Below, one piece after another: positions 36,184-45,717 of a stretch of 64,000 nucleotides of DNA. The notes below the pieces were generated by a model. It searched no databases. It was not told the origin of the DNA and was given only the letters and a program-made list of their open reading frames with translations. Origin of the DNA: an uncultured Clostridia bacterium (GTDB lineage Bacteria > Bacillota > Clostridia > TANB77 > CAG-508); the NCBI GenBank assembly GCA_944390285.1, contig CALXPN010000002.1:31762-95761 (forward strand). Direction: 5' to 3'. Position numbers and translations under genes: made by a program. Within the stretch, counting starts at the first letter, position 1. Each line of letters opens with the position of its first letter.

Positions 36184-36260
36184 GGCGATGTAGCTCAGTT
36201 GGCTAGAGCATCCGGTTCATACCCGGCAGGTCGTAGGTTCAAGTCCCACCATCGCTACCA
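36184..36260 (+). tRNA. tRNA-Met (anticodon CAT), elongator-like
   Basis: GGCGATGTAGCTCAGTTGGCTAGAGCATCCGGTTCATACCCGG...CATCGCTACCA; cloverleaf with CAT anticodon loop and encoded CCA; near-identical to the B. subtilis elongator tRNA-Met. Confidence 0.85.
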
Positions 36261-36263
36261 TTA

Positions 36264-36299
36264 ATCAGTCGAAAGACTGATTTTTTTTTATTTTTTTTA
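36264..36299 (+). terminator. Rho-independent terminator after the tRNA
   Basis: Stem atcagtc / gactgat with loop gaaa, followed by a long T-run. Confidence 0.6.
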
Positions 36300-36488
36300 A
36301 ATTTATAAAATTGCTCAAAAAGGTTTATTTATAGCCTTTTTTTATTTTTAACTTTTTTAAAATTCTCTGAACTTTTTACAGCTTTTTTCAATTTACATGC
36401 CCAAGTACAACCCCATTTTTTCAAAAAAATTAATTTGGAGTTTAAAATTACAATCCCAAATTAAATTTGGGGTTGTAAAAATAATAAT

Positions 36489-37052
36489 TTAGATTTCTAA
36501 TTCTTTTTGTTGAATATTTTGTAATAATTTAACACTATCTAGCATATTTTCTTCAAGATAATATTTATTTACTTTTTCTATTTCTTTTTCTTTAAATTTG
36601 TCGAATACTGATGTATATGTATTTAAAGTTACTGATACATCTTTATGTCCCATTAATTTTTGAACAACCACTGGTGCCATACCGCTTTCAATACATCTTG
36701 TTCCGTAAGTATGTCTTAAACTATGTGTTGTAATATCCTCAATTCCAAAGTGTCTTTTTAATAATCTTTTTAGTTCTGTATTTACATTTTCTCTATCTGT
36801 ATATTTTCTACATTCAGGTTTAAATAATAATTTTTCTTCGTTATTTTCTTTTATATATTTTAGTATTTCTAAACCTGATAAGTTTATGTTAATAATTATA
36901 ATATCAATATTTTTATTAATAATACTTTGCATAGCTTCATTTATATTATGTGATATGTTATATATTTTTAAATTACTTATTGAGTTTGAAATTTTGTTAA
37001 TAATTTTAGACATATAATCTAAATTGTTATCAATAATCATTAGATTTTGCAT
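36489..37052 (-). pseudogene. Tyrosine recombinase/phage integrase C-terminal catalytic-domain remnant fused to a receiver-like N-terminal fragment
   Basis: HSLRHTYGTRCIESGMAPVVVQKLMGHKDVSVTLNTYTSV carries the HxxR...Y active-site region of tyrosine recombinases. The N-terminal 80 aa look like a CheY-receiver fragment, and the integrase N-terminal and core-binding domains are missing. Confidence 0.5.
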
Positions 37053-37123
37053 TTTTTCTTCTATCCTTTGTCAATTAATATAGTATATATCGTGAAATTT
37101 TTAAAAAAGTTGTATTTTTATAT

Positions 37124-38461
37124 TTAATCTTTATCAATTTTTTCTAACTCAATTGTAACTGGGTTTCCATAAAACTCTATTATAACAGATATTTTATTTG
37201 TTGCATCATATTTTGTCATTTCAAATGTTTCATAAAAATCAAATTTATTTCCATATATGAAATTAGCATTTTGCTTTCTGGTTGGGCTCATTGTACATCT
37301 AAATTTTTCGTTATTAGAATTAAGGACATAACTTCCTTCAGTATTTTCATTAGATGTTATTATTTGTGATTCGCCATTAACATTTATAGGTTGCATCTTT
37401 TTCCAATATTCTTCATACATTTCTTTATATGGAGATTGACTATATAGTTCTTTTAGTGCATTATTTTCAACATTATCTACATTATTAATATTAGAAAGTA
37501 TAGTTGTAGGTATAATTACTGTTTTTTCATCAACAATTTCTATATCTTTATTAACGTTATTAGAATTAATTTCATTTTCTTTTTTCTTTAACTCTTCTGG
37601 ATATGTTGGTTCTTCTATATCTGAAATAGTAATTCCAATTTCAAATCCAGTATCAGAAACTTTAGCAGTATAAATATCAAAGTTATCGTTATCACAATTT
37701 ACTACTTTGTAATATTCATATGACCTATTGTACATTACTTCAGGAATTTCTAAATGAATTTTCCAATTACCAGAGAGTATTATTGCATCTTCAGTATCTT
37801 TTTTAGTAATTTTAATTTTGCTAAAATTCAAATGTAATTCTTTTAAATGAGGATATTTTTCGTTATAAATATTGTAAGTTAATGTTATAATATTATTTTC
37901 TGAATTATATGCTGTTATAAAATTATTTACACCACCTTTCATATAATCTTCATATTTATAGGATAAATTGTTTTTTATGCAAAAAAATTCAAAGTCTTCT
38001 TGATTAGCTCCATTAAAAACAATTTTGTTATTTTCATCAACAATAATCAAATCGATTAAATCTATATTTTTTAAATTATTTAAATCTATTAAGTTATTTA
38101 TATCATTTTGAAACTGAAAATCAAAGTGAATACCAATATTATAATCATCTATGTAAAAATCACTTATTTTAGTTGCAACATCAATATTATCTATATTTGT
38201 TGTAGAATTTACAAAATCCATATTAGTTTCTTTAATATAACCATTGTTAATTGCTGTTTCTATGCCATTTCCTAAGTTAAATTTATTTTTAATGAAATTG
38301 CTAATATCTGTGGCAAAAACGCAACTGGTAGTTAAAATTATACAAAAACAAGCTACAATTCCTATTTTTTTATTTGTAAATTCTGCATTATTTTTTTCTT
38401 TTTCTTTCATTTTAGATACAGCTATTTTAAATTTGATATATTCTTTTAGTTTATCTTCCAT
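37124..38461 (-). CDS. Membrane-anchored protein, candidate anti-sigma factor (DUF4179-like architecture)
   Basis: 445 aa; short cytoplasmic N-terminus, one TM (IGIVACFCIILTTSCVFA), large extracytoplasmic domain; immediately downstream of the sigma factor gene; AAGGAGG RBS. Confidence 0.4.
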   Translation of the reverse strand: MEDKLKEYIKFKIAVSKMKEKEKNNAEFTNKKIGIVACFCIILTTSCVFATDISNFIKNKFNLGNGIETAINNGYIKETNMDFVNSTTNIDNIDVATKISDFYIDDYNIGIHFDFQFQNDINNLIDLNNLKNIDLIDLIIVDENNKIVFNGANQEDFEFFCIKNNLSYKYEDYMKGGVNNFITAYNSENNIITLTYNIYNEKYPHLKELHLNFSKIKITKKDTEDAIILSGNWKIHLEIPEVMYNRSYEYYKVVNCDNDNFDIYTAKVSDTGFEIGITISDIEEPTYPEELKKKENEINSNNVNKDIEIVDEKTVIIPTTILSNINNVDNVENNALKELYSQSPYKEMYEEYWKKMQPINVNGESQIITSNENTEGSYVLNSNNEKFRCTMSPTRKQNANFIYGNKFDFYETFEMTKYDATNKISVIIEFYGNPVTIELEKIDKD

Positions 38462-43550: not shown

Positions 43551-43670
43551 CATCGCACCAAAATCCAGTCTGATTGACTGGATTTTTTGTTAAAAGTATA
43601 AAATCTCTACAACAGTCTGCTTACAATTATACTAATACTAACATATAAAATTATTAATAAATATTTTATA
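43551..43670 (+). repeat. ~125-bp direct repeat (copy 2) with a tRNA-3'-end-like att remnant
   Basis: ctgtccatcgcaccaaaatccagtctgattgactggatttttt...; about 90% identical to 40734-40857. Confidence 0.6.
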
Positions 43671-43744
43671 TATTATTTACAAGTATAGTTTTTAATGTTT
43701 AAATATAATTAAAATATTATTTATATAATGAAAGTGATAAAAAT

Positions 43745-44458
43745 ATGAAAAAATTTTTAAAATGGATAATTATTTTTATTTTAATTATTACAGTCTTAAT
43801 GCTTTCTTTATATATATATCAAAAGTCTGTTTATACATTAGATAAAGTAAGTTTTATGTTAAACTCTGCTTATCTGCCAGAAAATGTATATATAAAAAAT
43901 TACACTCATACAACCGAATTTGATACTTATATTGATATATATATTAAAAATAATGTCCAATATCTCTATCAAAAAACAAAATCTAATATTACAAATATTG
44001 ATACTTATAATATAGATGAATATTTAATTATTAATGAAAATTCAAGAAATATTTTTATTTCTTATACAGATAAATTAATTTTAGTAAATAATAATGTAGA
44101 AAATAATGTTTCGAACATACCAGAAAAAAATAACTTTTTTGCAAAAGTAGAAGCACATGGATTACATGAATATTTGGGAATATATAAATATTGCGGATTA
44201 GAAAATATAAATGGAAAAAAATGTATAAAAGTTTCTATGACAGATAATAATGAAAATAGTATTGATAGGAATTACTATTATATTGATTTAGAAACTAATC
44301 TTATTTTAAAAGCAGAATCTGCTTATGGAAATTCCACAAATGATTTAGAAATAGTTAGCACAGATAATTACGAGTATTACTTTAATTCAGTAACTGATGA
44401 TAAAATGCCTGAATTTAATATAAATGATTATCCAGATTTCTTATATTCCGAAATATAA
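43745..44458 (+). CDS. Hypothetical secreted/membrane-anchored protein
   Basis: 237 aa; N-terminal TM; no family recognised. Confidence 0.4.
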   Translation: MKKFLKWIIIFILIITVLMLSLYIYQKSVYTLDKVSFMLNSAYLPENVYIKNYTHTTEFDTYIDIYIKNNVQYLYQKTKSNITNIDTYNIDEYLIINENSRNIFISYTDKLILVNNNVENNVSNIPEKNNFFAKVEAHGLHEYLGIYKYCGLENINGKKCIKVSMTDNNENSIDRNYYYIDLETNLILKAESAYGNSTNDLEIVSTDNYEYYFNSVTDDKMPEFNINDYPDFLYSEI

Positions 44459-44472
44459 CTCAAAACTAGTTT

Positions 44473-45150
44473 TCAGTTTTGAGTTATATTTTTTAAATCT
44501 ATAATAAACTTGCATTCTCCTATAGGATAAAAAATTTTATTAGAATTATCATACTCACATTTATATATTAAATCTAAAAATTCTATATATAAAACTTTTG
44601 ATAATTCATTATCTTTATCTAAATCAAACATTAATTCTAATTGCAAACAGTTAGAATTAATTGTATTAGAAAAATCAAATATTTCATCTTCATTTAATTG
44701 ATTAGTTAAAAAACCTTTAGTTGATATTTGAGAATATAAGTTTTTATTATATAACAAATAATCTGTATTTCCTACAAAAAGTGTTCTATCTCCTATAGAT
44801 TTATTATAATAAATATTACTATCATCATGAACTCTCAGCATAGAACGTAAACTTTTTAAAGGTTTACTATCATTTGTATAAAAATCAAAATTCACTTTTA
44901 ATGTTCTATTTGAATTTTCATAGTTAATATTATTTAATCTTATAGATATATTTCCTTTTGAAATTATACATTCTGAGCTATTTTTATCATAATTACATTC
45001 TATAATCTCTCTCAGATAATAGTTTTTTCTAAATAATATTTTATCCATAATATTATCTATATCATCACCATAAAAAAAATTATAAAAAATATTAACAAGT
45101 ATAAAAAAAATAATAAAACATATAGTTATTACTAAAAATTTTTTCTTCAA
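44473..45150 (-). CDS. Hypothetical membrane-anchored protein
   Basis: 225 aa; N-terminal TM; no family recognised. Confidence 0.4.
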   Translation of the reverse strand: MKKKFLVITICFIIFFILVNIFYNFFYGDDIDNIMDKILFRKNYYLREIIECNYDKNSSECIISKGNISIRLNNINYENSNRTLKVNFDFYTNDSKPLKSLRSMLRVHDDSNIYYNKSIGDRTLFVGNTDYLLYNKNLYSQISTKGFLTNQLNEDEIFDFSNTINSNCLQLELMFDLDKDNELSKVLYIEFLDLIYKCEYDNSNKIFYPIGECKFIIDLKNITQN

Positions 45151-45171
45151 ATCAAATCTCCATATTTCTTA

Positions 45172-45717
45172 CTAAACTATAGTTATAATGCAATCACTAA
45201 TTATACAAATTAATAATACATAAAAAACTATATTTAATAATAATTTATTCATTTTATTACATATAAATTCGAAAAAAGGTTGAAATAAATATAAAAACAT
45301 AACTCCACCTATTCCAAATCTTATTGAAGGAGATAAGGCTATTCTTCCTTCAAAATTTATTTTATAATTTAAATAGGTTTGCCAAGGCCAATATCCCATT
45401 ATAGCTTCACATATATATGATGTAATTAATTCGATTATTGTAGCAATTATTGTACACCCTAAAAAGATTACTGGTAATAAAAATAATCTTTCTTTTGTAT
45501 TTTTATTTTTTATTAGTGGATACATAGTAATCAAAAATGAAAGTGCTCCAAAACCATAAACAGGACAATATGGTCCAAATAACACTCCCCTGTTTGAAAA
45601 TCCCCATTTATAAACTACAACTTCCAAAAAAACTTCATAAATCCAGCCAAATATTGAATATAGCATAAAATAAATAAATACTTTTTTTATTTTATCTTGT
45701 ACTTTAAATTTTACCAT
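45172..45717 (-). CDS. Putative ABC-transporter type IV (CmpB-like) membrane protein
   Basis: FGWIYEVFLEVVVYKWGFSNRGVLFGPYCPVYGFGAL matches the signature block of that family. Confidence 0.45.
   Translation of the reverse strand: MVKFKVQDKIKKVFIYFMLYSIFGWIYEVFLEVVVYKWGFSNRGVLFGPYCPVYGFGALSFLITMYPLIKNKNTKERLFLLPVIFLGCTIIATIIELITSYICEAIMGYWPWQTYLNYKINFEGRIALSPSIRFGIGGVMFLYLFQPFFEFICNKMNKLLLNIVFYVLLICIISDCIITIV

Follow-up and report, generated by a model that had tools for sequence, protein, structure and literature searches.

Probable tandem accretion of decayed mobilizable elements at the 3' end of a tRNA-Met gene in uncultured gut Clostridia

We analysed a 64,000-nucleotide stretch of DNA (the window) from an uncultured Clostridia bacterium (assembly GCA_944390285.1, contig CALXPN010000002.1), in which a single tRNA gene, tRNA-Met (CAT), is followed by a variable region. 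With a probability of roughly 85%, what lies between 36261 and about 45770 is a series of decayed integrative mobilizable elements (IMEs) in tandem, and each of them entered by tyrosine-integrase recombination at the end of the tRNA gene. This reading draws on the architecture of the attachment (att) sites, on a precise empty site, on the presence or absence of each block independently of the others, and on the near-identity of the tRNA-proximal block, E3, in two species; the blocks beyond it are called E2 and E1. In their present state the elements are like cis-mobilizable elements (CIMEs), that is, att-flanked and non-autonomous: they have att sites, no integrase of their own and no relaxase in the window, so they fail the definition of an IME, and they fit the structural definition of a CIME, with E3 keeping attL and attR1 with their arm motifs beside a truncated integrase and no relaxase.

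Attachment sites at the tRNA-Met gene

The features on which the reading depends are as follows.

36184-36260, plus strand: tRNA-Met (CAT), the integration target, intact in occupied and empty strains alike
36252-36260, plus strand: attL core TCGCTACCA, the last 9 nt of tRNA-Met
36261-40748: block E3, 4,488 bp, bounded by the 9-bp core TCGCTACCA (36252-36260 and 40740-40748)
36261-36488, plus strand: left (P') arm of E3, with an element-borne terminator, a second hairpin and arm-type motifs
36489-37052, minus strand: open reading frame (ORF) of 187 amino acids carrying the integrase remnant (Phage_integrase, PF00589, E 3.9e-17)
36489-36842, minus strand: integrase remnant, the C-terminal ~117 residues of a tyrosine recombinase, with the N-terminal two thirds gone
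40651-40774, plus strand: attR1, right end of E3, with P arm, core and native tRNA-Met terminator
40749-43560: block E2, between tRNA/attR1 and attR2, without a recombinase
40776-40855, plus strand: copy 1 of segment D3, 91% identical to 43588-43667 and within a 180-bp segment (40780-40959) missing in many strains
41577-41665, plus strand: third partial repeat, an internal P-arm copy without core, left over from an att site that separated two units, accreted or duplicated
43464-43667, plus strand: attR2, right end of E2, with P arm, degenerate core, native-type terminator hairpin and D3 copy 2

An earlier note on this DNA, made from the sequence without database searches, had described two direct repeats of about 125 bp that begin like the 3' end of the tRNA. 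The repeats exist, their length being 205 nt rather than 125 (40651-40855 and 43464-43667, 81% identical), the third partial copy has to be added to them, and the window holds no further copies. The likeness to the tRNA end was borne out, as TCGCTACCA is found twice in the window against an expectation of 0.02, and CCATCGCTACCA, allowing at most one mismatch, has its sole sites in the window at the tRNA and at 40737-40748, so that the match to the tRNA end exceeds chance expectation. In attR1, two tandem arm-type motifs (40676-40699) precede the core CCGTCGCTACCA (40737-40748, with the exact 9-mer at 40740-40748) and a hairpin (40748-40774); in attR2, the arm motifs lie at 43489-43512, the core CCATCGC-ACCA, with one base lost, at 43550-43560, and the hairpin at 43560-43586. 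Both cores thus precede a hairpin with an 11-bp stem (dG -14.2 and -14.8), the terminator-like shape that the note had pointed out, and we take it to be the native tRNA-Met terminator because strains with an empty site join the tRNA directly to the attR1 hairpin. A terminator similar to the native one also lies 3' of attR in a deer-gut relative (L036). All matches to ACAACTCCAAAT in the window, with at most one mismatch, are confined to the att regions. The attR1 core agrees over 12 nt with tRNA-Met of a sister species and of Candidatus Scatovivens and over just 9 nt with the window's own tRNA, as would be the case had the element come from a host of that kind. Both repeats have a layout that is also seen in relatives, and they are genuine attR sites.

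Two hairpins are found in the left arm of E3, a replacement terminator (36263-36282) and a further hairpin motif (AAAAAGGTTTATTTATAGCCTTTTT); the arm-type motif ACA(A/T)NNCCAA(A) is present there in about five copies (36395-36476), which run in both orientations. This layout, from the tRNA to the integrase stop codon, is conserved in the related loci L011-L015.

Empty sites and block loss among strains

About 21 independent metagenome assemblies came from exact-protein look-ups; they belong to the same species and match the window at 98-99.9% identity in the flanks. E3 is present in about 10 of these and precisely absent in about 11 (L016, L105-L107, L109-L113, L115 and L125). The empty site reads tRNA...CCATCGCTACCA|AAATCCAGTC...GACTGG or, more widely, ...CCCACCATCGCTACCA|AAATCCAGTC(AATTA/TGATT)GACTGGATTTTTT..., with the intact tRNA joined to the attR1 hairpin, and this junction is the attB expected from recombination within TCGCTACCA. 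Diagnostic junctions for E3 were defined as attP ...AATAATGTCATCTGTCCGTCGCTACCATTAATCAGTCGAAAGACTG... and attB ...CCCACCATCGCTACCAAAATCCAGTCAATTAGACTGG.... A different P arm stands before the same core in one assembly (L124), from which we conclude that another family member occupies the same tRNA there and that the site has been reused.

Close relatives thus differ by the precise presence or absence of a block at the att core, a mark by which a genomic island is recognised. The comparison of sub-blocks that the earlier note had proposed gave the same answer for each of them: E3 is missing in about half of the same-species contigs, E2 in L152, and E2, E1 and the adjoining CmpB gene in the sister species.

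Smaller indels are a record of stepwise decay. They comprise 455 bp inside the integrase remnant (36531-36985), 180 bp at 40780-40959, and about 900 bp inside a 409-amino-acid paralogue of the caspase-fold gene of E2, which is intact in L124-L126. In L109 and L111 one cassette unit was lost via recombination between the paralogues of 129 and 135 amino acids, and in L104 attR2 is deleted.

A family of intact relatives

A truncated tyrosine-recombinase catalytic domain directly 3' of the tRNA, as the earlier note had it, was confirmed by the PF00589 match. The integrase-derived part of the 187-residue ORF comprises residues ~70-187 and keeps HSLRH and the Tyr region (HxLRH...Y); the complete catalytic set R...K...HxxR...H/W...Y is absent in the remnant, which in the alignment starts past the first catalytic Arg (GLRxxE motif).

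A scan of one genome per GTDB species returned 509 integrase relatives, and the locus counts given here come from the best 78. The C-terminal part kept in the window has hundreds of relatives at 68-92% identity, many truncated and few near full length. All of the best 78 are from uncultured gut Clostridia, including Candidatus Scatovivens, in metagenome genomes from human, chicken, rabbit, deer and mouse, often with several relatives per genome. At 48 of these 78 loci the integrase gene has a tRNA gene on the opposite strand, no more than 900 nt downstream; 25 are tRNA-Met, and the others are tRNAs for Pro, Gln, Leu, Arg, Tyr and Gly. The geometry of the window, with tRNA-Met (CAT) as the neighbour and the integrase gene pointing at its 3' end, is repeated in two relatives independent of each other, P0012 and P0021. 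In 15 of the 48 tRNA-adjacent loci the last 11-12 nt of the tRNA (11-16 nt across the relatives) are found again at a distance of 2.5-10.7 kb, as a single further copy with the same strand.

Four or five of the tRNA-Met and tRNA-Arg relatives (L011, L012/L014/L015, L026 and L074) have a common attR layout, in which two tandem arm-type motifs (e.g. TTACAACGCCAAATGCATATCCAAAT) 45-60 nt before the core are followed by a spacer of ~40 nt, CTG(T/C)C plus the tRNA end, and a terminator hairpin. It equals that of window positions 40676-40774 and 43489-43586; together with the precise empty site, it upholds the note's proposal of serial integrations into the tRNA 3' end. In all loci compared, the P' arm has a terminator hairpin and the second hairpin motif, together with the arm-type motif in four or five copies and both orientations. 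The motif ACANNNCCAA occurs 2.3 times per kb in P' arms and 0.17 times per kb elsewhere (~13-fold), and is confined to the integrase subfamily closest to that of the window. Repeats of the ACANNNCCAA/ACAACTCCAAAT type are putative arm-type integrase sites, by their position, repetition and covariation, and the full-length relative P0014 has the arm-DNA-binding domain PF14657.

Intact members of the family contain an integrase of 406-407 amino acids, an HTH_3 regulator, a Mob_Pre relaxase and a conserved 162-amino-acid gene, the last being found just upstream of the integrase in 67 of the 78 loci. The relaxase matches are strong (E 7e-42 in L034 and 1e-41 in L076), with homologues in about half of the loci. 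An intact element of ~10.2 kb, with ends 83% and 89% identical to those of E3, sits in a tandem array in a human-gut metagenome genome (L028), whose internal junction has the core and no tRNA. Close integrase relatives outside bacterial genomes were not found, the best matches being 27% identical in 50,697 phage records, 27% in plasmids and 42% in IMG/VR. Because intact members carry Mob_Pre and the integrase has no close phage, plasmid or IMG/VR relative, we regard the family as IMEs and not phages.

The cargo of each block also has homologues inside or beside other family members. A homologue of the anti-sigma-like protein of E3 is found in L034 (45% amino acid identity), on the same side of a full-length integrase, and one of its sigma factor in L049 (56%). 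The p237/p225 pair of E1 recurs in the same orientation in L076, a tRNA-Tyr element with Mob_Pre (45% and 55%), and the small membrane protein of 129 residues in E2 has a 40% homologue in L096, 3.4-3.6 kb upstream of the integrase gene.

Two side groups of the family were also seen. L012-L015 (7457-10983) contain a 3.45-kb mini-element bounded by a 16-nt tRNA-Met repeat, with an integrase ORF of the catalytic domain only (205 amino acids, the identical protein occurring on 69 contigs), a fragment of LmuB_C, and a pair of small ORFs; similar truncation is seen in many family members. L092-L103 form a more distant integrase subgroup (~52%) with no adjacent tRNA and a Mob_Pre gene downstream of the integrase, suggesting a different target and architecture.

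The same block in a sister species

A search with the left junction of E3 found contig ERZ809224 NODE_8 (323 kb), which holds the syntenic locus of a sister species in the order smc-HD-proS-scpB-(radical-SAM cluster, inverted)-tRNA-Met-...-AKR-...-asnS, AKR being an aldo-keto reductase gene. Core genes of this species are 78-86% identical to the window at the nucleotide level, and the E3 cargo is 99.82% identical over 2,841 nt, with the arm and integrase remnant at ~98%. Three further assemblies show the same arrangement (L147 and L149-L151 are four independent assemblies). The integrase of the sister-species E3 is truncated as in the window, and 36840-37052 is missing between TTTTTCTTC repeats, which indicates that this copy derives from a window-like E3 whose integrase was already truncated.

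The earlier note had judged the island to be old, and for E3 this is not so, because the block is polymorphic and its cargo is 99.8% identical across species with 78-86% core identity. The related claim that the island would be immobile without an integrase is correct for autonomous movement and does not extend beyond that, as the same truncated E3 is found in the sister species; a near-identical block with a truncated integrase in that species implies movement with outside help.

In the sister species nothing but E3 lies between the tRNA and the AKR gene, which agrees with the outer limits that the earlier note had drawn; relative to this species, the window species therefore has E2, p237/p225 and the CmpB gene in addition and, as the CmpB gene is included, the outer limit of the variable region stands at 45769. 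Beyond 39893, the sister-species copy of E3 gives way to unrelated DNA. L148 has the same truncated E3 behind the P arm of another element, joined at the core, and this arrangement is accretion. In L152 the E3 attR is directly followed by the hairpin, D3 and p237 (93% identical), so that this lineage, whose attR abuts the p237 flank, has no E2.

Genes for a KAP-family NTPase and an IS200-type Y1 transposase belong to the element upstream of E3 in L148, left of the att junction at 5700 (reverse strand).

Alternative explanations and contrary evidence

How E3 came to be in two species is the less certain part of our account. It may be a doubly parasitic, still-active element that crosses gut species by means of the integrase, and possibly the relaxase, of intact IME family members, which we offer tentatively, at somewhat under even odds. 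What speaks for it is indirect, namely the precise empty site and the occurrence of one and the same truncated E3 both in a sister species and in an accreted array. If true, the ECF (extracytoplasmic function) sigma/anti-sigma module would keep E3 in circulation, the intact helpers would themselves depend on conjugative elements, and the locus would be a natural, population-scale case of CIME cis-mobilization spreading a regulatory module. The competing possibility, which we consider unlikely, is that E3 was spread in larger chromosomal fragments by homologous or illegitimate recombination and that its att sites are dead relics. The integrase is indeed truncated in all E3 copies seen, strains of the species are mosaic (four combinations of E3 and the 180-bp segment, and gene conversion between paralogues), and the tRNA offers ~77 nt of near-identical homology on the left. 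Yet in the sister species there is no homology on the right, where E3 meets unrelated DNA at 39893, in the window species the 9-bp core is exactly where the junctions lie, and the joining of the left end of E3 at the core to the P arm of another element in L148 is the product expected of an integrase.

Two other readings concern the region as a whole. The ~205-nt repeats could be a local tandem duplication of the cassette of caspase-fold and small-membrane-protein genes with its 3' region, the likeness to the tRNA being coincidental; the cassette has in fact been duplicated (the 129- and 135-residue genes are 82% identical and a remnant of the 409-residue paralogue survives), the third partial repeat has no core, and L109 and L111 lost one unit by paralogue recombination. 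We give this very little credence, since TCGCTACCA occurs against an expectation of 0.02 in the window, the repeat at 40651-40774 is not attached to a cassette gene and is instead the right end of E3, precisely absent in many strains, and the arrangement of arm motif, core and terminator is also found at the attR of elements with unrelated cargo in other genomes. A decayed prophage or phage satellite at the tRNA is just as improbable: the Pfam family name Phage_integrase, the HTH_3/CI-like regulator of intact relatives and an unrelated prophage-like region near the tRNA locus of L014 would favour it, but intact relatives carry a plasmid-type Mob_Pre relaxase, the integrase reaches at best 27% in phage records and 42% in IMG/VR against its 509 relatives in bacterial genomes, and no phage structural gene was seen in L034 and L076, the two relatives read gene by gene (the PHROGs library was not scanned).

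Several observations weigh against the array of IMEs that we prefer. The core common to attL and attR1 is just 9 bp, and that of attR2 is degenerate. The flanks of attR1 and attR2 are 91% identical for ~107 nt beyond the core (hairpin and D3), which exceeds the length of a simple att core; in relatives, attL/attR flank identity runs 0-56 nt past the core and exceeds 120 nt in the tandem array of L011, and the left arm of E2 may be a captured copy of the native flank. E1 has no right-hand att site, the case for its mobile origin being one homologous cargo pair (L076) and its absence from the sister species. The lack of E2 in L152 could stem from homologous recombination between the 205-nt repeats rather than from primary absence. 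The window contains no intact integrase, no 162-residue gene and, by tblastn with the L034 and L076 proteins, no Mob_Pre relaxase (oriT was not sought), so that any current mobility would be putative, and the one scan of metagenomes for the E3 P' junction yielded a hybrid att and, from the sister species, an attL, but no circular E3 attP. Finally, all four combinations of E3 and the 180-bp indel exist, so that haplotypes cannot tell ancestral empty sites from excision.

Excision after decay had been argued from the haplotypes E3+/180bp+, E3+/180bp- and E3-/180bp-, and was dropped once L125 gave E3-/180bp+. The divergence of E3 among its carriers (0.12%, against 0.6-0.9% in the left flank and 0.1-0.4% in the right) is not decisive for its age within the species.

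Proposed mechanism and known systems

Under the IME array reading, integration takes place between the attP of the element and the last 9-12 nt of tRNA-Met. The incoming element brings a new tRNA 3' end and its own terminator, leaving the tRNA intact, while the former 3' end and the native terminator are displaced to the far side and become attR. Repeated integration at the restored tRNA builds a tandem array, from which later deletions strip the integrase, the relaxase and part of the cargo. The order of arrival was probably the p237/p225 block, then E2 with its two related units, and E3 last, and E3 would move by integrase supplied in trans by an intact family member.

This structure is of a known type, that of accreted IMEs and CIMEs. 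For integrative conjugative elements (ICEs) and IMEs of Firmicutes, a three-step scheme of integration, decay to a CIME that keeps attL and attR, and accretion at the att site has been described (PMC5704250, section 2.3, Guedon et al. 2017), with the ICESt1/ICESt3-CIME arrays of Streptococcus thermophilus and the composite island IME_Sag2603_tRNAlys as examples of accretion at tRNA 3' ends (PMC5704250). Our locus has in common with these the non-disruptive integration at a tRNA 3' end, the decay to forms that keep attL and attR, and the entry of a newcomer into a resident element's att site, which gives tandem arrays and hybrid att sites. It differs from them in its hosts, which are uncultured low-GC gut Clostridia (Candidatus Scatovivens and relatives) and not streptococci, in an integrase family without a close characterised member, in the element-borne replacement tRNA terminator, and in its cargo of an ECF sigma/anti-sigma pair and a predicted caspase-fold exported protease; cis-mobilization is here hypothetical. 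With canonical MobV-relaxase IMEs of Firmicutes such as IMESag-rpsI and Tn6215 (PMC5704250), the intact relatives share the pairing of one tyrosine integrase with Mob_Pre (MobV) and no mating-pore genes; unlike those, the window copies are without relaxase, the target is a tRNA 3' end and not rpsI or another protein-coding gene, and there is no known helper conjugative element. The attP resembles that of lambda type in having motifs of 10-12 nt on both sides of the core (the P arm with two of them, the P' arm with about five) that co-vary with the integrase subfamily, and in the N-terminal position of the PF14657 arm-binding domain in P0014; the arm sites here are assigned by position, repetition and covariation alone.

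Nothing at the locus challenges current understanding. It is a clean, well-resolved natural case, from uncultured gut Clostridia, of small mobilizable elements stacking up at a tRNA gene: an empty site was directly observed, the site has alternative occupants, and accreted arrays and stepwise decay can both be seen. The locus further defines an IME family that is abundant and has so far been uncharacterised, whose 509 integrase relatives and recognisable att architecture should aid the annotation of metagenome genomes. Less ordinary is the recent spread between species of a block without integrase or relaxase, carrying an ECF sigma/anti-sigma pair, that is near-identical in species ~20% diverged, suggesting that non-autonomous elements circulate effectively in the gut.

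Cargo of the blocks

The remaining features of E3 are listed below.

36843-37052, minus strand: receiver-like fragment fused in frame to the integrase remnant, with weak Response_reg and TadZ matches (residues 1-69)
37124-38461, minus strand: 445-amino-acid single-pass membrane protein, anti-sigma-like by position and topology, with a weak DUF4179 match (E 0.032)
38466-39083, minus strand: ECF-type sigma-70 factor
39136-39453, plus strand: 105-amino-acid membrane-anchored protein, divergent from the sigma gene
39770-40327, plus strand: 185-amino-acid protein with a hydrophobic, signal-peptide-like N-terminus
40395-40416 plus T-run: strong GC-rich terminator after the 185-residue gene, 9 pairs (6 G-C), dG -15.1

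The receiver-like fragment is removed in other E3 copies by the 213-bp deletion of 36840-37052 between the TTTTTCTTC repeats (L145 and L147-L152). The earlier note had named a TcdR/ECF-like sigma factor, an anti-sigma-like membrane protein, GC-richer secreted proteins and an unusually GC-rich terminator. The second, with its one transmembrane segment, and the last agree with our results. For the sigma factor the ECF assignment stands, with regions 2 and 4 above thresholds (Sigma70_r2 25.3 with a cut-off of 24, Sigma70_r4_2 49.6 with 25.7, and TIGR02937 62.7 bits with 42.9), and nothing specific to TcdR came up, the 25 best NCBIfam matches listed being all ECF-type with no TcdR, BotR, TetR or UviA family among them (no direct comparison with TcdR was made). 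The true start of its gene is likely 38975 (169 amino acids, as in the metagenome-assembly calls).

As for composition, the 185-residue gene is GC-richer, as claimed, being the sole strong outlier (36% GC; third-position GC (GC3) 20% against about 10%; top 1% of windows), and the other island genes, at 18-28% GC, are host-like. By block, GC is 24.2% in E3, 24.6% in E2 and 18.9% in the AT-richer E1, against 25.2% in the flanks and ~26% in the whole window. Deviant base composition, which the note had put forward as a check, thus fails to mark the island, the 185-residue gene alone deviating.

The 105-residue protein is 99% identical in the sister species, in which the 185-residue protein stops at residue 41; the latter has no family match and no useful match in a PDB sequence search. 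Between the sigma and 105-residue genes (38976-39135) there is a 39-nt inverted repeat (39001-39039 and 39072-39110, 79% complementary), each arm of which has AAAAA(G/T)GTTGCAC, with a related motif at 37098-37134. These are possible sigma-dependent divergent promoters, and the ECF sigma factor may drive the divergent 105- and 185-residue genes through this inverted repeat (39001-39110). Just beyond the stop codon of the 105-residue gene, a tandem partial duplication of its 3' end (39374-39524; 58 nt, 81%) is a decayed duplicate.

Blocks E2 and E1 and the adjoining gene contain the following.

40925-41062, minus strand: remnant of the 409-residue paralogue of the caspase-fold gene
41195-41584, plus strand: 129-amino-acid membrane protein, paralogue of the 135-residue gene
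41660-41698: bidirectional terminator 3' of the third partial repeat
41707-42924, minus strand: 405-amino-acid protein with a hydrophobic N-terminal helix, a caspase/CHAT-fold domain and a C-terminal beta-rich domain
43055-43462, plus strand: 135-amino-acid membrane protein
43745-45150: block E1, the convergent pair p237 (43745-44458, plus) and p225 (44473-45150, minus), with no att site surviving to the right
45172-45717, minus strand: CmpB-family membrane protein (PF06541), in all same-species strains and absent in the sister species

E2 consists of two related units, the small genes being 82% identical in nucleotides and the large proteins 60% identical. The N-terminal helix of the 405-residue protein (residues 2-20) is a signal peptide or a membrane anchor. 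Its structural model has a predicted local distance difference test score (pLDDT) of 81.8, and with the N-terminal ~200 residues the best Foldseek matches are SAVED-CHAT 8tl0 (E 1e-5), caspase-8 and separase. Across 12 homologues there is almost no variation at H92, G93 and C138. We therefore predict a caspase/CHAT-fold peptidase with a conserved His/Cys dyad. A PDB sequence search with this protein gave nothing useful, and a PADLOC scan of ten island proteins returned zero defence systems. The family is very narrow (13 homologues) and always paired with a membrane protein of ~130 residues. Ends of the IS605/TnpB type, considered for the repeats and the 405-residue ORF, were ruled out by the caspase/CHAT fold, the hydrophobic N-terminal helix and the lack of other repeat copies in the window.

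Flanking regions

An Rfam scan of 30000-50000 at permissive E-values returned the tRNA and one sub-threshold chance match, so the repeats match no known RNA family. The tRNA is preceded by its own promoter.

36136-36164, plus strand: sigma-70 promoter of tRNA-Met, consensus TTGACA-17-TATAAT, with 12 of 12 positions matching

To its left lie the housekeeping genes smc, proS and scpB and a radical-SAM/SPASM gene with a 298-residue partner; to the right of the variable region are the AKR gene, a zeta-toxin-like gene and asnS. The radical-SAM/SPASM gene overlaps the 298-residue gene (33710-35984), whose product matches no known family and whose 3' end has short tandem repeats rich in Cys codons (35843-35901). 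This pair adjoins tRNA-Met in other species too, and is inverted relative to the tRNA in L033 and L147. The zeta-toxin-like gene (47015-48025) has a 69-residue ORF just upstream, overlapping the gene start, in the calls of same-species contigs; with the nearby PemK-type toxin gene (50761-51111) it makes up the toxin-antitoxin modules of the core flank. In the sister species other genes lie between the reductase gene and asnS. Seven metagenome contigs (L004-L010; window 36112-36330) stop inside or just past the tRNA, as would be expected if one sample contained both occupied and empty strains, or if the tRNA were multi-copy.

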